The notes under the pieces: model-generated
What the model saw: the letters and a program-made list of their open reading frames with translations, nothing else
The model's database searches: none
What the model was told of the DNA's origin: nothing
In this document: piece by piece, positions 22,962 to 34,505 of the stretch
Numbering within the stretch: the first letter of the stretch is position 1
Layout of the letters: each line of letters opens with the position of its first letter
Program-made: the position numbers and the translations under genes
Assembly (NCBI GenBank): GCA_018652595.1
Contig: JABIBU010000008.1
Coordinates: 1-62,420 of the forward strand
Length of the DNA: 62,420 bases
Direction of reading: 5' to 3'
Origin: Candidatus Magasanikiibacteriota bacterium
GTDB lineage: Bacteria; Patescibacteriota; Patescibacteriia; Magasanikbacterales; UBA922

Positions 22962-24734
22962 TCATTTATTACCGCCATCTTTCTTAATAATACTAATACC
23001 CAATTCCTTTAACTGACTATCATCAACGTAAGCCGGGCTTCCCATCATTGGCTCTTCGGCTTTTTGATTCTTTGGAAATGGAACTACTGTGCGGATATTC
23101 TTCTCACCAAGAAGGACCATTACCAAACGCTCAATTCCTGGAGCAATACCACAATGTGGTGGTGCACCATACTCAAACGCATCTATCATATGACCGAATT
23201 TTTCATCCACCTGTTCCTTGGTGTATCCAGCAATTTCAAAAGCCTTGTACATGATCTTTGGATCCTTGTTTCGAACTGCACCTGAAGACAATTCGAGTCC
23301 GTTGGCGATAATGTCATATTGGTAACCCAAAATGTCTAAAGGATTTTCATTTTCTAGAGCTTCCATGCCACCTTGTGGCAGTGAAAATGGATTATGAGAA
23401 AAATCAATCTTACCACTCTCTTCGTCTTTCTCATACATTGGAAAGTCTACTATCCATGCCCAACCAATAGTGTTTGGGTCGGACAACTCAAACTTCTCCC
23501 CCACTAGAGTTCGTACTGCACCCAAAGCCAAGCAACTTGTTTCCCATTTGTCGGCCACAAAAAATAGTATACAATCTTTTGTTACCCCAGCCAACTTGGA
23601 AAGTTCTGATAATTTCTCCTCATCAAAAAACTTACTCACTCCTCCATCAAATTTACCACCCTCGTACTTCATCCAAGCCAGCCCCTTAGCACCATGACGC
23701 TTTGCCCTGTCTTCAAACTCATCAATTTCTTTGCGAGTAAACTTCTCTCCGCCTGGTATCACTAAGGCACGAACAAATTCCGATGAGCTAAATACTTTGA
23801 AATCAGTTCCGCCTGCCCAATCACTTATGTCTTGTAATTTTAGATCGAAACGCAAATCTGGTCGGTCAGATCCATACTCTTCCATTGCAGTCTTAAAAGG
23901 AATTCTTGGGAAAGGTTTTTGCATTACTTTTTTGTCAGACACCTTTTCGGTAAGCTCGATAAACAACGGTTCAATTTCTTCAAAAAATTCTTCTTGTGTC
24001 AAAAAGCTAGTTTCCAAATCAAGCTGATAAAATTCGCCCGGAGATCTGTCGGCTCTGGCATCTTCATCGCGCATACAAGCCGCAATCTGATAATAACGAT
24101 CAAAACCAGCGACCATCAAAAGTTGCTTATACTGCTGTGGAGCCTGTGGAAGAGCATAAAACTTGCCTGGATGGACTCGGGACGGCACGAGAAAGTCTCT
24201 TGCGCCCTCTGGTGAGCTGACAGTCAAAACTGGTGTAGCAATATCTATAAAATCTCTTGCTTCCATATAGTCTCGAATATACTTTACAACCTTTGCGCGA
24301 AATAAAATATTATTTCGGAGTTTCTCACGACGGAGTTCTAAATAACGATATTTCAACCGCAATTCCTCGTCTTCATCACCTTTTTTGGTCTCAAAAATTT
24401 CAAATGGCATTGCCTTTGCAGTACTAAGAATTTCCAAGCCTGTTGCATGAATTTCAATCTCACCAGTAGACAAATCCTTGTTTATGTTCTTTTTATCACG
24501 CTTCTCAACCAAACCAGTAACCTTGATAACAAATTCGTATTTTAATTTTTCTGCCAAATCAAAGCCAACAACCTCATCTGGATTGAAGACTATCTGAGTC
24601 AGACCATAGCGATCACGCAGATCAACGAAAATAAGACCACCGAGGTCTCGGCGCTTATGAACCCAGCCAGACAGAGTAACTTCTTTTCCAGCATCTTTTT
24701 TGGATAGTTCCCCACATTTGTGTGTACGATACAT
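22962..24734 (-). CDS. aspS: Aspartate--tRNA ligase (probable start MYRTH at 24734)
   Basis: RTHKCGEL, RDLGGLIF.DLRD, LRLKYRYL, SPEGARDF, LPQAPQQYKQ, GAD domain, PPH.GIAPG. Confidence 0.97.
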   Translation of the reverse strand: MYRTHKCGELSKKDAGKEVTLSGWVHKRRDLGGLIFVDLRDRYGLTQIVFNPDEVVGFDLAEKLKYEFVIKVTGLVEKRDKKNINKDLSTGEIEIHATGLEILSTAKAMPFEIFETKKGDEDEELRLKYRYLELRREKLRNNILFRAKVVKYIRDYMEARDFIDIATPVLTVSSPEGARDFLVPSRVHPGKFYALPQAPQQYKQLLMVAGFDRYYQIAACMRDEDARADRSPGEFYQLDLETSFLTQEEFFEEIEPLFIELTEKVSDKKVMQKPFPRIPFKTAMEEYGSDRPDLRFDLKLQDISDWAGGTDFKVFSSSEFVRALVIPGGEKFTRKEIDEFEDRAKRHGAKGLAWMKYEGGKFDGGVSKFFDEEKLSELSKLAGVTKDCILFFVADKWETSCLALGAVRTLVGEKFELSDPNTIGWAWIVDFPMYEKDEESGKIDFSHNPFSLPQGGMEALENENPLDILGYQYDIIANGLELSSGAVRNKDPKIMYKAFEIAGYTKEQVDEKFGHMIDAFEYGAPPHCGIAPGIERLVMVLLGEKNIRTVVPFPKNQKAEEPMMGSPAYVDDSQLKELGISIIKKDGGNK

Positions 24735-24744
24735 AAATTTCAAC

Positions 24745-24900: not shown

Positions 24901-26199
24901 TTATGGCTTCAAACGATTCACCAACCTAGGAAAAGGAATACATTCGCGTATATGCTCGGTACCAGAAATCCAACGAACGGTTCGCTCTAACCCAATACCA
25001 AAACCACTGTGTGGTACACTGCCATACTTTCGCAAGTCTGTATACCATTCATAATCTTTTTCATCCAGATTCTCATCTTCGCGAATACGAGTCATAAGCA
25101 ATTCAAAATCGTCCTCGCGCTGAGACCCACCTATTAGCTCCCCCGCGCCCTCAATTCCGATAAGATCATTATTTAGTACGCGCTCAGGATTTTCTGGGTC
25201 TATTTTCATATAAAATGGCTTTATTTTTTTTGGCCACTTTTCAATAAAGACTGGAACTGCGCTGTCTTTGGTGAGAAGGCCCTCATCATCATTTCCCAAA
25301 TCTTCTCCATACTTAATATCACTGCCAAGTTCGTTTAATTTCTTTATTGCTTCTTCATAAGTATAACGGGTAAACGATTCTTCCAACATTTTTTGGAGGG
25401 GTGCAGTATCCCGCTCTAATACTTTTAATTCTTCTGTACAATTTTCCAAACATTTTTTTACAATTGCTTTCAATAGATCTTCCTGTATTTGCAAATTCTC
25501 ATCATGCTCTATAAAAGCACCTTCGGCATCCATCATCCAAAACTCAGTTAGATGGCGTTTGGTAGTAGATTTTTCGGCGCGAAATACTGGACCAAAATCA
25601 TAACAACGACCAACAGAAGCAATCGCTGCCTCAGCATAAAGCTGGCCTGACTGTGACAAATAAGCTTCCCCCAGATCAAAATATGGCACTGGAAAAAGTG
25701 TAGTAGTTCCCTCGCAAGCATTAGGGGTAAATATTGGCGAATCAGCCCTGATAAAACCTTGATCATGCAAGTATTCGTTGATAGCAGTCTCGATTATGTC
25801 ACGAATCCTAAGAATCGCCCATTGTTTTTTTGATCTCAACCACAAATGTCTATTGTCTGACAAAAACTCAGGACCATGCTCTTTCAACGCTATCGGGTAC
25901 TCATGCGCCACCTGTATACTTGTGAGCTTGCTAACTTGCAACTCATATACACCCTCTTTTTTTGGATGCGCTGAAACCTCGCCCACAACCTCTAAAGACG
26001 ATTCTTGTGTTAATGCCTCAATCTCTGCCCAAATATCGTCTGACAAGCTATCCTTGACTGCTACAGCCTGTATAAAGCCGGTACCGTCACGTAGCTCAAG
26101 AAAGGCGATTTTACCAGATGATCGCTTATTATATAGCCAACCCTTAAAGACTACCTCTTCTCCTACCTTACTAGATAAATCTTTGATAAATGTCTGCAT
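24901..26199 (-). CDS. asnS: Asparagine--tRNA ligase
   Basis: GWLYNKRSSGKIAFL.LRDG, RHLWLRS, CEGTT.LF, LSQSGQLY, RHLTEFWM, PHSGFG.GLER. Confidence 0.96.
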   Translation of the reverse strand: MQTFIKDLSSKVGEEVVFKGWLYNKRSSGKIAFLELRDGTGFIQAVAVKDSLSDDIWAEIEALTQESSLEVVGEVSAHPKKEGVYELQVSKLTSIQVAHEYPIALKEHGPEFLSDNRHLWLRSKKQWAILRIRDIIETAINEYLHDQGFIRADSPIFTPNACEGTTTLFPVPYFDLGEAYLSQSGQLYAEAAIASVGRCYDFGPVFRAEKSTTKRHLTEFWMMDAEGAFIEHDENLQIQEDLLKAIVKKCLENCTEELKVLERDTAPLQKMLEESFTRYTYEEAIKKLNELGSDIKYGEDLGNDDEGLLTKDSAVPVFIEKWPKKIKPFYMKIDPENPERVLNNDLIGIEGAGELIGGSQREDDFELLMTRIREDENLDEKDYEWYTDLRKYGSVPHSGFGIGLERTVRWISGTEHIRECIPFPRLVNRLKP

Positions 26200-26309: not shown

Positions 26310-29300
26310 TTAGTTGGACTCTAGAACTTCACTACCAAATCTAAATGCTCTGGTAACTGGGACAAAGAAAGAAACAAAATCTTCCCAAAGATCTACACCC
26401 AGACTAACTCTACCCCCACGAACAGCCTCTGCTACAGTTATTCTAACCGAAGAGCAATTGTTGGTCTCATCTGTTTCAACTATTACGTCTAGTGCGTCAG
26501 AACATACCTGTGCAGTGTAATCACCTGCTGTAGCCGGCCATACAGAGCTCCAAGTCAAAGATTGACTAGCTCCGCTTACAATAGTCCTAGTAGACAAAGA
26601 ACCCTGAAGTCTTCCGTCTATATATAGGTAAGCGGTAGAAGCACCGGCATCACCCTCGGCCTGATTGTAAATCGTAGCATAAAAAGTCACGCTATCGCCA
26701 TCTGTCACAGAAGCCGGATCATAAGTAAGTGAAGTGATAGTAAGATCTGGATTCCTTGTGACCTCCTCCGGCTCTGGATCTGGCTCTCGTGGCGTACAAC
26801 TTTGTGTTTGGTCTGGTGTAGCCGAGCGATCATTCTCACAATCATAGCTCATTCTACAAGTTCGAGTCTGCTCACCAGAGTCTGAACAATCTGACCAATC
26901 TTCACATTCCCAAGTATCTTCTGTACATGTTGGCGCACATGATTGTCTAGTGTCTGGCGAAGGAGTACTTGCATAACGACAATCATCACTCATTCGACAG
27001 GTTCTATCCTGAGTACCAGATTCTGAACAATCACTCCAATCACCACACTCCCAAGTATCTTCTGTACATGTTGGCGTACAACTCTGTGTCTGTGTTGGTG
27101 TTGCTGTGCGAGCAGTAGGACAATCATAACTCATTCGACAAGTACGTGTTTGTTCGCCTCTTTCGGAACAATCTGACCAGTCTGCACATTCCCAAGTATC
27201 TTCGGTACATCTAGTCTCTTCTACTATTACAGTAGGCTCTTCTTCTCTCACATCTCGTTCGACTGGCTCGTCTACCCTGATTTCTTCAGTAGCCTCTCGA
27301 ACATCTTCGGTTGTGCGACGAACTTCAGTAGTCGCATCTTCTGTGTTATGTGTAGCAGAATCTCCTGTTGTTTCAGGCTCCTCATAAGTTCTCGCTTCTT
27401 CTCTAGCTTCTGTTTCAGGCTCTCTTGTGGTGGTTTCACGGTCACTATCCACTTCCGCATGAGTTGCACTTCCTGACTCATCCGACAAGGTCTCATCCAC
27501 AGCCTCAGCTGTAGTACCAACACGAGCGGTCCTAATACAATCAGTACCTAATAGATGATGATATTCAAGATTATTACCCTTTGCTATCTGAACCCTCTCT
27601 CCATCCTTGGCCCAGCCAGCTATCCCATCTTCTATCAACCATACAAATCCATCGCCATAGGAAACACAAACTGTGTTTTCTGGTCTAGAGCTACAATCCC
27701 TTGTAAAAGAATCTTGCTCAACAAAACCACTAGGACAAGAGTATGATTCTATAACATCTCTTCCTGAAGTACTAGCTAGTGGCAATCCTTCTTCCTCACG
27801 CCTTTCTTCTACATCCTGTTCCAATTTCTGTCTTACTTCCCTAACAGAAGCAGATAACTCAGAACCAATTCTACTCTCAACATCTCTTATTACGCGCACA
27901 CTTCCTTCACTCTCATCTGAAGTAGTACCTAAAATTTCTCTTATGGCTTCTCCTCTATCGCGCTCTCTTACTTCTTCAATTTTATTTTCAATACGACTAA
28001 TGACCCTATCTCTAGAAGACTCAATTTCTTCTATAACCGCTTCGTCTACAACCGCTCTATCTCTTACTCTATCTTCCAGATCATTTAACACTTTCATATT
28101 ATTAACCTCGTTTCCAGAAGCCCCAACATAATCCCTCAACAAACTACTATCAATCTTTGCCAATTCAACAACTTGTTTTTCTAATCTACGACCATACTGC
28201 TCTTTTAAATCTCTAAGTGTGTCCCTAGTGGCTTCTGATGGCCCAGACTGTTCCATTGCTTCTAAAATTTCCAAATTACGCACAGAACTTATTGGATTTT
28301 TACTAACATTCATTGCAACCTCAAACACCCTTCTCACTTCTCTAGGATCTTCGATAGCTTCAGCATTTGCCTTTATATCCTCCAAAGCAACTCTTCTAGC
28401 TTCTCTTACTCTATCTAATCTGTCTACAGGCGCTTCTCTTTCTACTTTACCCAAAAGCACTTGCTCTTTTAATGTCAAACGCATAGCTAGGACCCTCAAT
28501 CGCATTGCTTTTTCCGCATCATTCTTTTCTACTTTAGTTAATGTCTTTTGTAATTTTTCTACATCTCTTCTATATCTGCGCATATGCTTAGCAGCCGTAT
28601 CAGGGTCAACTAACTTAGCTTCTAGCATTTTTTCAGCGGCATAACGCATTCTAAGCTTTGCCTTTTTCTCTTTATCAAAAGTTAGCCAAGAACGAACACC
28701 TTTTCCGGCTAGCTTAAACACATAAAGAGGATTGTCTGGCAATATCTTTGGGTTAAGGGCCTTATTTATCTTACCTAATTTATTTACTTGTTCACCATAA
28801 TTATATCCGTAGCCATATCCTCCACCTGAACCACTACTGCCAGCATAATAACCATAACCATAAAAATCAGACCCTTGTTCATCACCATAATAACCATAGC
28901 CGTATCCTACACCACCTCCGAAAGTTATATCACCAACAAGATCTCCTGCATTAAAACAGACCTGCCCACCTTCTGGAATGGACTCTAATACCTCTGGGTC
29001 TATATCACTTACCACTCCTGTGACACTTTCAAACCAACTATAATAAACATCTTCACTTGGTATTTCATACTTATATCCACCATATAGATAATAAACTTTT
29101 GGTGTCAAAACAGATGTTACGACTGTGCCATCAAAATTAGTGTCTGTTAACTGCAATAAATCAACACAACGACCTAAATATTCATCTTCTAAATCTACTA
29201 TCTCTCCTGCCAAATCTTCAGCAGCATCTTGTTCTTCTTGATCAATCAATTCCTCTGCCGACATGTCTACATCCAACGGATATATATTAATCACATTATT

Positions 29301-30509
29301 AGACTGATTAATATCGTTTGATGTCACTATAAACAATTGTAAATAATCCCAATTAGTAACGTATTGTGTCAACCAATCATAGAAATTGCTATAATCATTA
29401 AAATTACTATCAAGCATAAAACTATAATAACCATTACCCAGAACATCCAAATCTGTGCCGGCAATTTGATAATCATTACCTACCTTGAAACAGTCCGCTC
29501 CTTCTTGATCAGGACAATTATATTTCCTAACATTAACATAAAGATTACTTAAATCTACAGATCCACTGTCTAGATTATTTATACTAAAAGCTAAATAATT
29601 ATAAGTTAAAATCATTGCATCAAATTTCCAATCAACGAAAGCTAGGGTTGAGGTAGGAGCAGCTACACAGTGACCATTAGGCAAACAAGTATGATCTTGG
29701 GGGCAATCCATTTCTTCACTAAATAAAACATTATCTTCACAAAAGAATTCTTTAACACCAGTAGCTTTGCCATCTACCCAATTAATACAACCATCATAAT
29801 TATTGTTGTTTATATAGACTCCATCTTCATTGTATCCCAAAGCATACCCTTGTTCTAGCAAATTAATGCCACCATCACTATCATAACAATCTGGGGTTGA
29901 AGTTGGGGTAGCTGCACAACGACCATTCTCACATCCATCATCACATTTTATATAATTTTGATCAAACAGATTATTTTCATTACAGTAATTTTCAAGTAAA
30001 AAATCCTCTGAACAGCTATCAGTCGCCACGGTAGAAGAAACTACAATACCGTCCACATAAATATCTAAAGATGTTACACCAGTAACAAATTCATTAATAC
30101 CATTATCGCTGTCTTGGCAAATAATCGAAATATCATTATAGTCGGTACATATACCGGATATGCATACATCATCACCCTCACAAACAAATGTTGATGCACT
30201 TGATTTATTATCATCTTTACAAAAATAATCCCGGGCAACCTTTTGTAAACCATTAGTTTTACCATAAAACTGACCGTCTTTGTGGCTTCCACATGAATCA
30301 TAACTTATATAGCTAGACTCTACCCCATCAACATCTTTAAACACTTCCACCTCTCCAAATGAATTAAAATTATTCTGACCATCTGAATCAGTACAATCAA
30401 GATAAGTCGTAACAGCCTGAGCTGTCGAGCCAGTTAATAAAAAACCGCAAGCCAAAACAAAAAGACCCACGATCAAAGTCGCCCTACCGATAAAATTACG
30501 ATTAACCAT
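26310..30509 (-). CDS. 1399-aa secreted mosaic surface protein (Cys-rich CxDSD repeats, DUF5667-like, coiled coil, 3 TSP1-like repeats, CARDB)
   Basis: Signal peptide; three C.DSD.G repeats; G/Y-rich linker; ILPDNPLY.FK; three CTEDTWEC.DWSDCS..G.Q.RTC repeats; PDL.I...CARDB with E.DE.NN. Confidence 0.8.
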   Translation of the reverse strand: MVNRNFIGRATLIVGLFVLACGFLLTGSTAQAVTTYLDCTDSDGQNNFNSFGEVEVFKDVDGVESSYISYDSCGSHKDGQFYGKTNGLQKVARDYFCKDDNKSSASTFVCEGDDVCISGICTDYNDISIICQDSDNGINEFVTGVTSLDIYVDGIVVSSTVATDSCSEDFLLENYCNENNLFDQNYIKCDDGCENGRCAATPTSTPDCYDSDGGINLLEQGYALGYNEDGVYINNNNYDGCINWVDGKATGVKEFFCEDNVLFSEEMDCPQDHTCLPNGHCVAAPTSTLAFVDWKFDAMILTYNYLAFSINNLDSGSVDLSNLYVNVRKYNCPDQEGADCFKVGNDYQIAGTDLDVLGNGYYSFMLDSNFNDYSNFYDWLTQYVTNWDYLQLFIVTSNDINQSNNVINIYPLDVDMSAEELIDQEEQDAAEDLAGEIVDLEDEYLGRCVDLLQLTDTNFDGTVVTSVLTPKVYYLYGGYKYEIPSEDVYYSWFESVTGVVSDIDPEVLESIPEGGQVCFNAGDLVGDITFGGGVGYGYGYYGDEQGSDFYGYGYYAGSSGSGGGYGYGYNYGEQVNKLGKINKALNPKILPDNPLYVFKLAGKGVRSWLTFDKEKKAKLRMRYAAEKMLEAKLVDPDTAAKHMRRYRRDVEKLQKTLTKVEKNDAEKAMRLRVLAMRLTLKEQVLLGKVEREAPVDRLDRVREARRVALEDIKANAEAIEDPREVRRVFEVAMNVSKNPISSVRNLEILEAMEQSGPSEATRDTLRDLKEQYGRRLEKQVVELAKIDSSLLRDYVGASGNEVNNMKVLNDLEDRVRDRAVVDEAVIEEIESSRDRVISRIENKIEEVRERDRGEAIREILGTTSDESEGSVRVIRDVESRIGSELSASVREVRQKLEQDVEERREEEGLPLASTSGRDVIESYSCPSGFVEQDSFTRDCSSRPENTVCVSYGDGFVWLIEDGIAGWAKDGERVQIAKGNNLEYHHLLGTDCIRTARVGTTAEAVDETLSDESGSATHAEVDSDRETTTREPETEAREEARTYEEPETTGDSATHNTEDATTEVRRTTEDVREATEEIRVDEPVERDVREEEPTVIVEETRCTEDTWECADWSDCSERGEQTRTCRMSYDCPTARTATPTQTQSCTPTCTEDTWECGDWSDCSESGTQDRTCRMSDDCRYASTPSPDTRQSCAPTCTEDTWECEDWSDCSDSGEQTRTCRMSYDCENDRSATPDQTQSCTPREPDPEPEEVTRNPDLTITSLTYDPASVTDGDSVTFYATIYNQAEGDAGASTAYLYIDGRLQGSLSTRTIVSGASQSLTWSSVWPATAGDYTAQVCSDALDVIVETDETNNCSSVRITVAEAVRGGRVSLGVDLWEDFVSFFVPVTRAFRFGSEVLESN
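26790..27215 (-). repeat. Intragenic 141-bp (47-aa) tandem repeat, 3 copies
   Basis: CCCAAGTATCTTC recurs near 26909, 27050 and 27191. Confidence 0.85.
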
Positions 30510-30712
30510 ATATTTTAGTTAATTTTTATTATAAATTATTATACAGCTATTTTAACACAAATTTCAAAAGACAACAACACCAAAAACAACCAAAGCACAC
30601 AGACCAACACCAAAAGACACAACTACTAATTCTACATACTCAAAACTTTTAAATTTATCTTTCTCAAAAAGATACACCAAACTCAACCCCAATAAAAAAA
30701 TAATTAAAAAAC

Positions 30713-32098
30713 TCATAAATTTACTCTCAATAAAAACCTATTTATATAAACACCTTCAGAACCTAAATTAAAATTAGTACCTCCCCTATAAATATACATT
30801 GGTGACATGTCATATTCTTTTAGCATTTCCAATCTTACCTCATTGTTTCCAGTATACCAAAACTTATTCCACTCTTCCTTGTTCCACTGATTATATTCAA
30901 AAAGCCCAGGCGCAATAACCTTTTTATCAGAATAACCATAGAGCCATGGAGAATATTTACTGTTTATGGACACTATATAATCGCTATCAGTCACCAAATC
31001 AGGAATGCTTTTTATCGACTCTAGTTCAGCTGGATAAATCAAAGGCTTCTTATTTACTACATGAATAGTTGCCCTACCTAGACAAACAACCACTAATAGA
31101 ACAATTCCTATATGGATCAAAAGACGATGTTTTTTGCCTCTCACCTTTTCCCATACATCTCGCAAAAAGACAGCCACAAATATTATTAAAGCCAAATCAA
31201 CAAAAACAAAAAAACGACGATAAAAGACCATCTTAAACAAAATTAATAAAATATTAACCAGTAAAAAAATGGTAAGTAGTTTTTGCTTTTTAAAATATCT
31301 TACTAGCCCAACCAAACCAAAAGGTAAATAAAAGGCGCTATATCTCAACCAATCACCCCAGCCAATGAACTGCCCAGTAAACTCATGATATCCAGCTTGG
31401 GCAAAATTCTCAGCCAACCCCCTGTAATGAAGAAAATCTTGAGCATAAACCAAAAGCTCTCTCCAATTCAAAACTAATAACAAAATAAAAGATGTTCCAC
31501 CGCTGATAAATAAAAATTTTCTAGTCTTTTTGTCTGCGAAAAATAAATAAACTATCAAACTTAGACCCAGAGGAATCAATGATAGGGGGTGAATTATTCC
31601 TATTGCCAGTAATATGAGAATTAATAAATAAGAACGATAGTGAATAAACAAAAAAGCTAGTAAAATAAAAAACAATGTCAAAAACTGACGGTAGTAATAC
31701 CACCAAAAAAATTCAAACTGGACTATAGAGGAAACAAATAATAAAACAGCGAGCAATGCAACTAACGCACTTTGAAAGTATTTTTTTACTACAATATACA
31801 GAGCAAGCAAAATAAAAACTGATATTAACAAATACCAGCCAAACATTATTGTGTATACACTATCCCCAAAAAGCATCAACCAATTGGAAAAAGCTGAAAA
31901 ACCAAAAGGTATGACACCTGGTGAATTAAAATAACCCAGAATATGATGTCGATAAATACCTGTATCATAGCCAAATCCAGCCATGCCGTATTCAAACCAC
32001 ATCCACAAATGGGTAAAGAGATAAAAAAACAAGCCAAAGCCTAGAATTAGGTATTCTTGCCAAGATTGTAATTTACTTTTTTTAAACAAGCCAAGCAT
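30713..32098 (-). CDS. Multi-TM GT-C-type glycosyltransferase-like membrane protein
   Basis: About 11 TMs; early loop GYDTG.Y; C-terminal soluble domain with W.Y..S; own promoter TTGCTA-17-TAAAAT near 32121-32149. Confidence 0.6.
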   Translation of the reverse strand: MLGLFKKSKLQSWQEYLILGFGLFFYLFTHLWMWFEYGMAGFGYDTGIYRHHILGYFNSPGVIPFGFSAFSNWLMLFGDSVYTIMFGWYLLISVFILLALYIVVKKYFQSALVALLAVLLFVSSIVQFEFFWWYYYRQFLTLFFILLAFLFIHYRSYLLILILLAIGIIHPLSLIPLGLSLIVYLFFADKKTRKFLFISGGTSFILLLVLNWRELLVYAQDFLHYRGLAENFAQAGYHEFTGQFIGWGDWLRYSAFYLPFGLVGLVRYFKKQKLLTIFLLVNILLILFKMVFYRRFFVFVDLALIIFVAVFLRDVWEKVRGKKHRLLIHIGIVLLVVVCLGRATIHVVNKKPLIYPAELESIKSIPDLVTDSDYIVSINSKYSPWLYGYSDKKVIAPGLFEYNQWNKEEWNKFWYTGNNEVRLEMLKEYDMSPMYIYRGGTNFNLGSEGVYINRFLLRVNL

Positions 32099-32185
32099 AG
32101 TAATAATTAATTACCTACTTATTTTACTAATTTTGGCTTATTTTAGCAAGTCATAGCATGTTAGGCACGACGAAGTGAATACTAG

Positions 32186-32286
32186 CTCCCAGACCAGGGC
32201 TCGCCATAAAATAGAGCTCCACTTCGACAAACTAAGTGTCCCTCACTTCAAGGCAAAAACCTGGAACCTATGCGTTAACAATCCCG
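32186..32286 (-). pseudogene. tRNA-Asn 3' remnant with a 54-nt insertion in the T-loop
   Basis: TT-GTT-AA..TAGGTT-CCAGG-TT-[32257-32204]-CGAGC-CCTGG-TCTGGGA-G. Confidence 0.7.
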
Positions 32287-32293
32287 ACAAAAG

Positions 32294-32365
32294 CTCCTTG
32301 GGCAGGATTCGAACCTGCAACATCGGCATTAACAGTGCCGCGTTCTACCATTGAACTACCAAGGA
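32294..32365 (-). tRNA. tRNA-Asn(GTT)
   Basis: TCCTTGG/CCAAGGA acceptor, CGGCA-CT-GTT-AA-TGCCG, GCAGG-TTCGAAT-CCTGC; CCA not encoded. Confidence 0.96.
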
Positions 32366-32371
32366 ACACTT

Positions 32372-32432
32372 GTCGTGATTCTACCAATTGCCACCCTACG
32401 GGTGGTCAGCCTTGGGCTGAAACTACCTCGGA
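32372..32432 (-). pseudogene. tRNA-Asn-like 5' remnant with a 30-nt double-hairpin insertion in the D-arm
   Basis: TCCGAGG-TA-GTT-[TCAGCCCAAGGCTGA CCACCCGTAGGGTGG]-CAATTGGTAGAAT-CACGAC. Confidence 0.7.
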
Positions 32433-32436
32433 ATAT

Positions 32437-32590
32437 AAACAAAAACACCCGTTTTAGCGGGTGTAATTAATGTTTTTACTAAGAGAAAAACTACACTCCG
32501 CTTTCGGGTGAATTATTATTACTATTATTATTTTTCACGTGTAATCTTATCATATAATTGTATTATAGCACATTTTAGCCATTTTGTCAA
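32437..32590 (-). promoter_or_regulatory. sigma70 promoter plus ribosome-mediated attenuator upstream of tRNA-Asn
   Basis: TTGACA(32590-32585)-17-TGn-TATAAT(32567-32562); alternative helices 1:2, 2:3, 3:4; terminator ACACCCG-CTAAAA-CGGGTGT plus U-tract. Confidence 0.7.
32491..32553 (-). CDS. Putative Asn-rich leader peptide MIRLHVKNNNSNNNSPESGV
   Basis: 20 codons with six AAT; ATG about 2 nt from the predicted TSS; stop codon overlaps attenuator segment 2. Confidence 0.65.
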   Translation of the reverse strand: MIRLHVKNNNSNNNSPESGV

Positions 32591-32641
32591 GGACCACTAA
32601 TCTTAACACGAATCAACACAAATATCTAAATACGAAAATTT

Positions 32642-33262
32642 TTAAAAAATAAAACAATTTTTCCAATCCTCCACCTTCCTCTCAGTCTGAAACACTAAGT
32701 AATTATAAATCTTATCGTGCACTCTTTTTTGTTCATCACCCTCAAAATGCAAATTGTTTATCAATTCCCAGCTACCGTGTGATAGAATCTCTAAATCTTT
32801 TTTTATTTCCTCACTTCTCAAATCTGAAGACAAAATATCAAAACCGAGCAAAGTTAGAAGTTTTACTACATAGCCACCAACCAGCATTGATTTAAACTGA
32901 TTTAAACTGACGTGTTCTAGCCAAGTTTTCAGCAGCTGAAAAATCCTCTCATCCACTTCACCACCATGAACCAGCTTGTCTGTCAGGCTAACTATATAAC
33001 TTGCTGATAAACTTTTTTGCAGATCTTTTCTAATTTCTGAAAAATAATTTATTGGCTGGACTTTGGTAAGGTGATCTATTTCTTTACCAGGTACTATTTC
33101 TACTTCAACGAAAGAAAACGGCTCAAGATGAGCCGAATTCTTACTAGTTATTTTTTTTACTCCTCGTGCGAGAACTTCTTGCTTACCTTTTTCTAATGTA
33201 TAGAGTGAAATTATCTGATCTGATTCGCGGAAGTCACGACGGTAGAGGATGATTGTTTGCAT
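32642..33262 (-). CDS. recO: DNA repair protein RecO (probable start 33262)
   Basis: IIL.RRDFRESDQIISLYT.E.GK..VLARGVKKI.SK...HLEPF. Confidence 0.9.
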   Translation of the reverse strand: MQTIILYRRDFRESDQIISLYTLEKGKQEVLARGVKKITSKNSAHLEPFSFVEVEIVPGKEIDHLTKVQPINYFSEIRKDLQKSLSASYIVSLTDKLVHGGEVDERIFQLLKTWLEHVSLNQFKSMLVGGYVVKLLTLLGFDILSSDLRSEEIKKDLEILSHGSWELINNLHFEGDEQKRVHDKIYNYLVFQTERKVEDWKNCFIF

Positions 33263-33293
33263 ATTTAAACATTGAAACTTAAAATCCAAAATC

Positions 33294-34505
33294 CTATCTA
33301 GATTTATTCATAAAATAGCTTACAAATCCTATTGCATCTCCATATTCTCCACTCATCCTACCAATCATTCGTGAGTTAGGCATGTCACCTTTCTTTTCTT
33401 GTATAACCTCCAAAAAAATATCTTTTGCTAATTCTGACAGATTATCTGACTTCAAAAAGGAAAATTTAGACATTTCTGCATTCACTTCTTCTTTATCCAC
33501 GACATCACCCGAAATACGCGCTTTTCCAAGTACAATGATCTGATCTACAATCTTGGTCATTATATCACGAGCAATGCTCTCCATTTCAATACCAGCTTTT
33601 TCATATATTTTATCTATATCAAAATCTAAATTCTTTTGCATAGATCTCAAGCTCTTGTCTGCCTCAAACATGTACGCGTAATCTTGGCTAGCCCTTTCCA
33701 AATCAACTATTTTTGAAATAACTTTTCCCGCATCACAATCTATTTTATTTTCCTTAATTTTTTTGAGTAAATTGTCTAGAAGTCCTTTGACACCACCCCC
33801 AATAACTTGATCTATGACATCATCTACAGCCATCTTACCTTCTTTTATAGAATCTAAATAAGATTCTATTACAGCCATGTCTTCTATGTCACTTCTTACT
33901 ATATCACCCACATTATTTTTCTGTTCTGACACCATAACAGTAGCAGATATACCCTCAAATCGATCTACTGAAACACCAGCCATAGTTGTATTTACAATTA
34001 TTCGCAAATCAACTTGATTGTCAGGATTATCTTCGTTCCATTTTGTCACCGCCTCACCTAAAAATATCATAGATTCTTCTCCATTCCCACCAAAAGGCAT
34101 ACCACGATTTTCCGTTGGTATCTCCATATCTTCAATAACCATAAGGACTCCTCCAGCACTAGACTCTATCAACGCAGGAGCCTTCTCTTTCACATCCGAA
34201 AGATTAGTGAAACTAAGAATTTCAGCATCCTGTCCACTTTCAGGCATAACACCCTTTAGAGAAGCTGTTGATTTCATAATAGCACTCGGGTCATCTTCCA
34301 CTATAAAAATTGTAGTTTTATCCCAGACTCTCTGTTTACATACTTCTAATTCCGCTGGATCCAGACCCTCTTGTTCTAATCCTGCCAAAGCCTCACCTGC
34401 TTCCCCTTCTTGATCAGTAAGTCTCTGCTGTTGGGCTAATTGCTCTGGACTTAAACCTTCCTTGCTCGTATCTTCTTGTTTATTTTTCTCTTCTTCTGTT
34501 ACCAT
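33294..34505 (-). CDS. Hypothetical 403-aa protein with a receiver-like domain
   Basis: IFIVEDDP...LMVIEDMEIP...IIVNT pattern after an acidic N-terminus. Confidence 0.6.
   Translation of the reverse strand: MVTEEEKNKQEDTSKEGLSPEQLAQQQRLTDQEGEAGEALAGLEQEGLDPAELEVCKQRVWDKTTIFIVEDDPSAIMKSTASLKGVMPESGQDAEILSFTNLSDVKEKAPALIESSAGGVLMVIEDMEIPTENRGMPFGGNGEESMIFLGEAVTKWNEDNPDNQVDLRIIVNTTMAGVSVDRFEGISATVMVSEQKNNVGDIVRSDIEDMAVIESYLDSIKEGKMAVDDVIDQVIGGGVKGLLDNLLKKIKENKIDCDAGKVISKIVDLERASQDYAYMFEADKSLRSMQKNLDFDIDKIYEKAGIEMESIARDIMTKIVDQIIVLGKARISGDVVDKEEVNAEMSKFSFLKSDNLSELAKDIFLEVIQEKKGDMPNSRMIGRMSGEYGDAIGFVSYFMNKSR

Follow-up and report, generated by a model that had tools for sequence, protein, structure and literature searches.

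The 62,420-nucleotide (nt) stretch of contig JABIBU010000008.1 analyzed here (positions 1 to 62,420, hereafter the window) comes from a Candidatus Magasanikiibacteriota bacterium. It carries, in front of the only gene for asparagine transfer RNA (tRNA-Asn) of this genome, a compact leader composed of a strong promoter, a short open reading frame (ORF) with six asparagine (Asn) codons and an intrinsic terminator. We propose, with a probability of roughly 80%, that this leader is a ribosome-mediated leader-peptide attenuator, and that its regulated product is the very tRNA that reads its own regulatory codons. The same arrangement recurs in front of tRNA-Asn in many related genomes, where the reading frame of the Asn run is maintained and the pairing segments change in a coordinated manner.

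Architecture of the leader

All features of the locus are on the minus strand, and their coordinates were read directly from the window sequence (Table 1). In a promoter scan of 2 kb (31500-33500), the TTGACA/TATAAT promoter was the sole match at 12 of 12 positions. Given the distance of only 8 nt between the -10 box and the ATG, the 5′ end of the transcript is predicted at the AUG or 1-2 nt before it. The six Asn codons of the ORF, all of them AAT, occupy positions 32532-32524 and 32520-32512, and the stop codon (32493-32491) is overlapped by segment 2. A terminator scan recovered the hairpin formed by segments 3 and 4, together with its T-run, at 32464-32437, and the entire unit from promoter to terminator spans about 115 nt. 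An initial annotation, made from the letters alone, had named the promoter, the ORF, the six AAT codons and four pairing segments, and direct reading of the sequence and the promoter scan found all of these in place. The fold of the leader has an energy of -28.3 kcal/mol (z = -3.7), a value equaled by none of 200 shuffled sequences. In the minimum free energy fold, segment 1 pairs with segment 4; therefore, termination is still expected in RNA that is not translated.

Table 1. Coordinates of the leader, tRNA-Asn, its remnants and two downstream genes in the window.
Feature	Position	Strand	Description
Sigma-70-type promoter	32562-32590	(-)	-35 TTGACA 32590-32585, 17-nt spacer, extended -10 TGcTATAAT 32570-32562
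Leaderless leader-peptide ORF	32491-32553	(-)	MIRLHVKNNNSNNNSPESGV*, 20 codons; ATG 8 nt 3′ of the -10 box
Regulatory codons	32512-32532	(-)	AAT x3, AGT, AAT x3; from sequence
Segment 1	32505-32511	(-)	UCACCCG; possible partners are segment 2 and, in untranslated RNA, segment 4
Segment 2	32486-32501 (core 32501-32492)	(-)	GCGGAGUGUAG plus UUUUU; antiterminator 5′ strand
Segment 3	32457-32477 (core 32465-32457)	(-)	AAAAAC...UACACCCGC; antiterminator 3′ strand and terminator 5′ arm
Segment 4 and U-tract	32437-32451 (segment 4 32451-32445, U-tract 32444-32437)	(-)	CGGGUGU and UUUUGUUU; intrinsic terminator 3′ arm
Disrupted tRNA-Asn, 5′ remnant	32366-32432	(-)	TCCGAGGTAGTTTCAG, double-hairpin insert, then ATTGGTAGAATCACGACA; from sequence; in sister genome G001, the orthologous sequence begins the intact tRNA
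Intact tRNA-Asn(GUU)	32293-32365	(-)	ARAGORN; Rfam tRNA 73.6 bits
Disrupted tRNA-Asn, 3′ remnant	32185-32288	(-)	Anticodon loop, T-arm split by a ~60-nt insert, acceptor strand TCTGGGAGC; 3′ end matches the intact tRNA-Asn of G001
asnS	24901-26199	(-)	6 kb downstream of tRNA-Asn, same strand
aspS	22962-24743	(-)	6 kb downstream of tRNA-Asn with asnS, same strand; 593-aa AspRS

Such an ORF is rare in the source genome, which has 0.96 Mb, 37% guanine plus cytosine (G+C) and 41 tRNA genes. Among its 10,940 ATG ORFs of 8-30 codons, only two contain at least 5 Asn within 9 codons, and only the leader ORF is also preceded by a promoter at leaderless distance and followed by a terminator. Therefore, a chance occurrence is excluded. 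Searching upstream of the 41 tRNA genes, we found a leader rich in the tRNA's own codons before tRNA-Asn alone and before none of the others.

The promoter itself is part of a larger conserved stretch, which includes the spacer (TTGACAAAATnGCnAAAATGTGCTATAAT) and about 35 nt upstream (window 32624-32561, minus strand). This stretch recurs at 80-97% identity at many loci of the source genome and in other genera, and looks like a shared strong-promoter cassette.

Conservation in related genomes

The comparison extended from the family through the order to many families of the class, i.e., the Magasanikbacteria/Kuenenbacteria-type Patescibacteria. A DNA search of 60 relatives yielded the tRNA-Asn locus from 22 other genomes, mostly via the tRNA alone. 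Together with the window, all 23 loci (from genus, family and order relatives) possess a TTGACA/TATAAT promoter, an ATG ORF and a terminator. Their leader ORFs have 13-27 codons with 5-7 Asn, the terminator is located 17-35 nt past the stop codon, and a tRNA or tRNA remnant follows 2-30 nt past the U-tract; in most relatives an intact tRNA begins 6-30 nt from it. In relatives, the corresponding position of the leader holds 3-10 Asn codons, and a Kuenenbacteria metagenome-assembled genome carries the same leader element. This comparison, recommended in the initial annotation, showed that four features are conserved in front of tRNA-Asn: an in-frame run of Asn codons, a leaderless start, a terminator and an antiterminator strand that overlaps the stop codon.

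For a broader survey, we used a specific pattern consisting of three AAY codons (Y, C or T), 60-99 nt and then the 5′ end of tRNA-Asn, with the reversed pattern as the control. It matched 34 of the 401 genomes of the class, distributed over about 19 families, whereas the control gave 0 matches. Although the pattern demanded neither, an in-frame ATG ORF and a terminator were present at the pattern-positive loci that were fetched. Among five pattern-negative genomes with a retrievable tRNA-Asn, three possessed the leader, one a degenerate leader and one none; hence, the pattern misses many true cases. A looser pattern, applied across the phylum, returned only coding-sequence noise outside the order, and leaders outside the class were reached only with a covariance model. 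This model, built from 42 leaders, matched 34 of 41 genomes of the family, usually with one strong match each that adjoined tRNA-Asn wherever checked, and at least 67 of the 401 genomes of the class (a lower bound, given the strict filters). Two of its matches are doubtful: L249 is without an Asn run, and L250 has scattered Asn codons before a gene of unknown type.

One genome of the comparison (G598) contains a second complete Asn leader (MIYHVTKENNINNNRLTLA) with terminator, 1.2 kb upstream of the one belonging to tRNA-Asn (L196 279-391). It is followed by what may be a decayed tRNA and by a 255-amino acid (aa) SpoU-type RNA methyltransferase-like gene, both recognized by eye. The leader-tRNA unit may duplicate as a module.

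Signature of translation

At 48 of 48 distinct related loci, an ATG ORF passes through the AAY run in the frame that reads Asn. The other open frame (ATA) is covered by such an ORF in 3 of the 48, and the third frame reads TAA. Where the Asn run is split, one frame is kept in 16 of 19 loci. The in-frame ATG is located 6-10 nt past the best -10 box in 38 of the 48 loci, and this spacing implies a leaderless mRNA. Within the peptide, the initiator Met, a frequent Lys at position 2 and the Asn run are conserved; the remaining sequence and the length vary freely. These features point to translation of the ORF.

The choice among Asn codons is unremarkable. AAT accounts for 83% and 70% of the leader Asn codons in two leader sets (AAC, 17-30%), compared to 79% AAT genome-wide. 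The idea that an AAT-only run could sense queuosine, raised in the initial annotation, is therefore unsupported, as leader codon usage in the relatives mirrors that of the genome.

Alternative structures and covariation

To model the switch, the ribosome was represented as a mask over the A-site codon plus 9 nt. A simple finder detects the terminator in 45 of the 48 loci. Over 45 loci, the median terminator probability was 0.00 with the ribosome on an Asn codon and 0.96 with the ribosome on the stop codon. The equilibrium model switches in 35 of these 45 loci, and in co-transcriptional folding the 5′ arm of the terminator is sequestered before the 3′ arm is made in 40 of 45. The sequestering segment is found between -11 and +22 nt from the stop codon, about 11 nt past the last Asn codon. 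For the window, the U-tract-side arm has a pairing probability of 0.86 in the absence of a ribosome, which drops to 0.07 when one is stalled and rises to 0.96 when one has reached the stop codon. As modeled, the leader thus contains a mutually exclusive antiterminator, which a stalled ribosome allows and a ribosome at the stop codon blocks.

Both strands of this antiterminator evolve in concert. Since segment 2 aligns inconsistently, the 2:3 helix was tested by permutation of cognate vs non-cognate duplexes. The mean duplex energy was -12.4 kcal/mol for cognate, -8.1 kcal/mol for non-cognate and -5.9 kcal/mol for shuffled pairs (permutation p<1e-5, Wilcoxon p=6e-13). Across families, the arm and its partner change together, for instance CCCGC/GCGGG, CCGGCC/GGCCGG, CTCTCC/GGTGAG and GCCAGTC/GACTGGC. 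The terminator helix has compensatory changes at 7 of 7 pairs when 58 leaders are re-aligned to the covariance model. Its covariation score is 0.42 vs 0.20 for shuffles (0 of 500 reach 0.42); sliding the pairing gives no more than 0.17. Two of the three helices of the initial annotation, 2:3 and 3:4, are therefore backed by the complementarity test and by covariation; the third, 1:2, is the weakest part of the scheme and is discussed below.

Read-through and the genes behind Asn leaders

The intact gene at 32365-32293 is the sole tRNA-Asn gene of the source genome. Between the end of the U-tract and this gene are 71 nt, and in these the promoter scan found no promoter of at least 9/12. The statement of the initial annotation that the tRNA-Asn locus begins within about 10 nt of the U-tract applies to the 5′ remnant of a disrupted tRNA-Asn, which begins 4 nt past the U-tract (from 32432), and not to the intact gene. 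As the single tRNA-Asn gene is located behind a terminator and has no recognizable promoter of its own, its expression must come by read-through.

Outside the class, a phylum-wide search with the covariance model found similar Asn leaders with terminators in front of asnS, tRNA-Asn or a gene for asparagine synthetase A. The asnS gene behind such a leader was identified as NCBIfam asparagine--tRNA ligase (529 bits), and the AsnRS-like asparagine synthetase A gene as NF005054 (335 bits vs a cut-off of 309). The leaders linked to these two genes are L243, L244, L247 and L248, from genomes of families f55 and f40, which belong to another class; as far as could be found, they are also undescribed. 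From this Asn-specific gene set, and without recourse to the codons, the signal can be identified as Asn-tRNA supply.

A further leader was noticed in one relative (G014). Just past its tRNA-Asn cluster, another Asn leader (MKHLYTNNNNQNNIFSYGM), weaker than the first and with a degenerate terminator (L005 1667-1780), directly precedes a gene for a LysE-family translocator (L005 1790-2386; Pfam PF01810, 68.6 bits), which may be another member of an Asn regulon.

Proposed mechanism

In the proposed mechanism, transcription from the consensus promoter would give a leaderless mRNA with the predicted start at or immediately before the AUG, and a ribosome would load once this 5′ end emerges. With charged Asn-tRNA-Asn plentiful, the ribosome would cross the six Asn codons and reach the stop codon within segment 2. 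Segment 2 would then be masked, the 3:4 terminator would form, and RNA polymerase would stop at the U-tract, before the tRNA gene. With charged Asn-tRNA-Asn scarce, the ribosome would instead stall on the Asn run, where it would cover segment 1 and leave segment 2 free. Formation of the 2:3 antiterminator would leave segment 4 without a partner, and the polymerase would continue into tRNA-Asn, to be released from the read-through transcript by RNase P and 3′ processing. The net effect would be a negative feedback that fits tRNA-Asn supply to decoding demand. The core of this scheme, from stalling via the 2:3 helix to read-through, was put forward in the initial annotation and is supported by conservation, reading frame, covariation and modeling.

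On a wider scale, we consider it likely, at somewhat lower confidence than the attenuator itself, that the element constitutes a self-sensing homeostat. Throughout the class, the only tRNA-Asn gene of a genome would be read solely via a leaderless Asn attenuator, the charged tRNA would repress its own gene by way of ribosome speed, and it would share a regulon with asnS and the AsnRS-like asparagine synthetase elsewhere in the phylum. A bolder extension concerns the supply of asparagine. The source genome encodes GatB, and its match to the Asn_synthase family is partial and reaches only 34 bits, which makes tRNA-dependent Asn synthesis possible. With GatB and without a genuine AsnB, tRNA-Asn may also be the scaffold for Asn synthesis, and the attenuator would then control Asn biosynthesis.

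Several observations weigh against the attenuator. The equilibrium model fails to switch in about 10 of the 45 loci, where only the order of co-transcriptional folding favors the antiterminator. The 1:2 hairpin is short and not significant; a 4-6-bp hairpin just past the Asn run appears in roughly 25 of the 45 loci, with a median z of -0.8 across relatives that is not statistically distinguishable. On a plain MAFFT alignment, in which the stems are offset by 1-2 columns, RNAalifold finds no consensus structure. The intact tRNA in the window is preceded by 71 nt of tRNA debris, which may contain a weak internal promoter. Finally, raising the tRNA would help little if free asparagine, and not the tRNA, were limiting, so the physiological logic of the feedback is presumed.

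Alternative explanations

The unit might be a small-RNA or micropeptide gene with a constitutively leaky terminator, from which the tRNA would be co-transcribed by unregulated read-through. Its ~115 nt from promoter to terminator resemble a stand-alone small-RNA gene, with weak, sub-threshold likeness to small-RNA families in Rfam, and the loci without a switch in the equilibrium model would be compatible with it. We regard this as unlikely, because a plain terminator has no need for a stop-codon segment that covaries with its 5′ arm, because the conserved part of the peptide is limited to the Asn run, besides Met and a Lys that is frequent at position 2, and because similar leaders precede asnS and asparagine synthetase elsewhere.

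The attenuator could also serve asnS-aspS, with the tRNA as a passenger in the operon leader. Both genes lie downstream on the same strand in the window (Table 1), where the initial annotation had correctly noted asnS at a distance of 6 kb; asnS directly follows the tRNA in 3 of the 23 family and order loci (G001, G002 and G006), and in another class an Asn leader directly precedes asnS. In the other 20 loci, unrelated genes follow the tRNA, several of them past a second terminator that belongs to the tRNA itself, and where asnS does adjoin the tRNA it has its own TTGCTA-17-TAGAAT promoter. In the window, two unrelated ORFs intervene. We consider an asnS-aspS leader quite improbable. For the same class we reject the related suggestion of the initial annotation, a relic attenuator whose asn gene had moved away, as the tRNA is the constant downstream partner. 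The intervening ORFs (window 26310-32098, minus strand) encode a protein of 461 aa without Pfam match and a 1399-aa CARDB-domain protein, and look like a recent insertion of surface-protein genes; sister genomes of the genus have asnS immediately behind the tRNA.

A translation-independent switch similar to a T-box, in which tRNA-Asn would be bound directly and AAU/AAC would act as specifier codons, would account for a codon run complementary to the GUU anticodon and for the terminator/antiterminator alternatives. It appears very improbable: a T-box would make no use of a conserved 5′ AUG, a conserved frame or the placement of the stop codon within segment 2, a conserved element for pairing with the NCCA end was not found, and searching the locus with cmscan against all Rfam families, T-box (RF00230) included, gave only the tRNA and sub-threshold noise even at E≤10. 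The last possibility, a chance AT-rich (AAT)n repeat beside the ordinary terminator of the upstream recO gene, would be conceivable at 37% G+C, where AAT is a common triplet, but it is already refuted by the comparative data, i.e., the recurrence of the design before tRNA-Asn in at least 60 genomes with 0 matches of the reversed control pattern, in addition to the rarity of such Asn-rich ORFs.

Remnants of tRNA-Asn at the locus

The intact tRNA-Asn of the window lies between the two halves of an older tRNA-Asn, which is broken at the anticodon stem (32432-32366 and 32288-32185, minus strand). This "outer" copy corresponds to the intact one in the sister genome G001. The read-through transcript would include the 5′ remnant, which, judged by its sequence, is no functional tRNA. 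Nested or fragmented tRNA-Asn genes were likewise found at L002, L004, L005, L016, L186, L205, L213, L216, L233 and L251. The flanking tRNA halves are still able to pair, as CACGAC/GTCGGG in the window, CCCGAT/ATCGGG in L004 and L005, and CCTAGC/GTTGGG in L002. The presence of tRNA-Asn 5′ fragments upstream of the live gene in many families suggests repeated replacement by insertion of new copies.

Additionally, we noticed a double hairpin of about 27 nt, GCCCAAGGC-TGA-CCACCCGTAGGGTGG, at about 32419-32390 of the window (minus strand), variants of which have compensatory changes. In several genera it interrupts the D-loop or the T-loop of tRNA remnants (L003, L016, L216 and L233), and it recurs beside other tRNA genes of the source genome (e.g., G000 C25:96270-96310). 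Possibly, it is a tiny element, mobile or involved in processing, with tRNA loops as its target. At two loci from genomes of the class, L187 and L208, two tRNA-Asn(GUU) genes lie close together, one behind an Asn leader and the other without. These pairs may represent an inducible and a constitutive copy.

Comparison with known systems

We know of no described Asn leader, and full-text searches of the published literature found neither an Asn leader nor a leader-peptide attenuator of a tRNA gene, in line with the statement to this effect in the initial annotation. A cmscan of the locus gave no match to the Rfam leader families for His, Leu, Thr, Trp or Phe. The mechanism proposed here is thus a known one, applied to a target for which no published precedent was found. 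To our knowledge, bacterial tRNA genes are generally viewed as growth rate-controlled, without gene-specific feedback. If true, the attenuator would provide direct, cis-acting feedback from decoding speed to tRNA supply and would be the first candidate for an Asn-responsive leader, with a regulon composed of tRNA-Asn, asnS and an asnA-type synthetase. It would also mean that the ultra-small, regulator-poor genomes of the Candidate Phyla Radiation retain protein-free regulation. The element would be a compact, portable sensor of Asn-tRNA charging and, being short and self-contained, is directly testable in vitro.

T-boxes bind tRNA directly and need no translation. Like the proposed attenuator, they sense tRNA charging to control read-through into tRNA-charging genes; the features that define them, namely a specifier loop, the T-box sequence and a conserved stem I, are absent at this locus. 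The Escherichia coli tRNA-Phe genes pheU and pheV were considered as a precedent, because the tRNA that they encode feeds the leader-peptide attenuator of pheA. They were rejected, since a plain promoter abuts the tRNA there and neither a leader ORF nor a terminator is present.

In form, mycobacteria offer the nearest published parallel. A preprint reports polycysteine leaderless short ORFs as Cys-responsive attenuators of downstream genes in the same operon (bioRxiv 10.1101/834739). As reported there, these ORFs share with the locus the leaderless 5′-AUG start, the small size, the run of a single codon type and the response to an amino acid, which at our locus would be Asn. They encode Cys rather than Asn runs, and the likeness noted here is one of form.

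In function, the leader resembles pheM-pheST of E. coli, in which a leader peptide controls an aminoacyl-tRNA synthetase. In both cases charged tRNA would be sensed via its cognate codons to control a component of the charging machinery and not amino acid synthesis. The direct analogs of pheM-pheST are the Asn leaders before asnS in another class of Patescibacteria, whereas in the window and its class the tRNA gene itself is located behind the terminator.

The leader follows the plan of the classical attenuators of E. coli and Salmonella (trpL, hisL, pheL, leuL, thrL and ilvL): regulatory codons in a row within a short ORF, an intrinsic terminator, and an antiterminator whose 5′ strand would be left free by a stalled ribosome and masked by one at the stop codon. 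It differs in its predicted leaderless mRNA without Shine-Dalgarno sequence and in the amino acid, Asn. The regulated gene makes or charges the sensed amino acid in case of the asnS and asparagine synthetase A leaders, but not at the locus itself. Where the classical attenuators regulate biosynthetic enzymes, the one proposed here would regulate a tRNA, and a textbook mechanism would gain a new class of targets.

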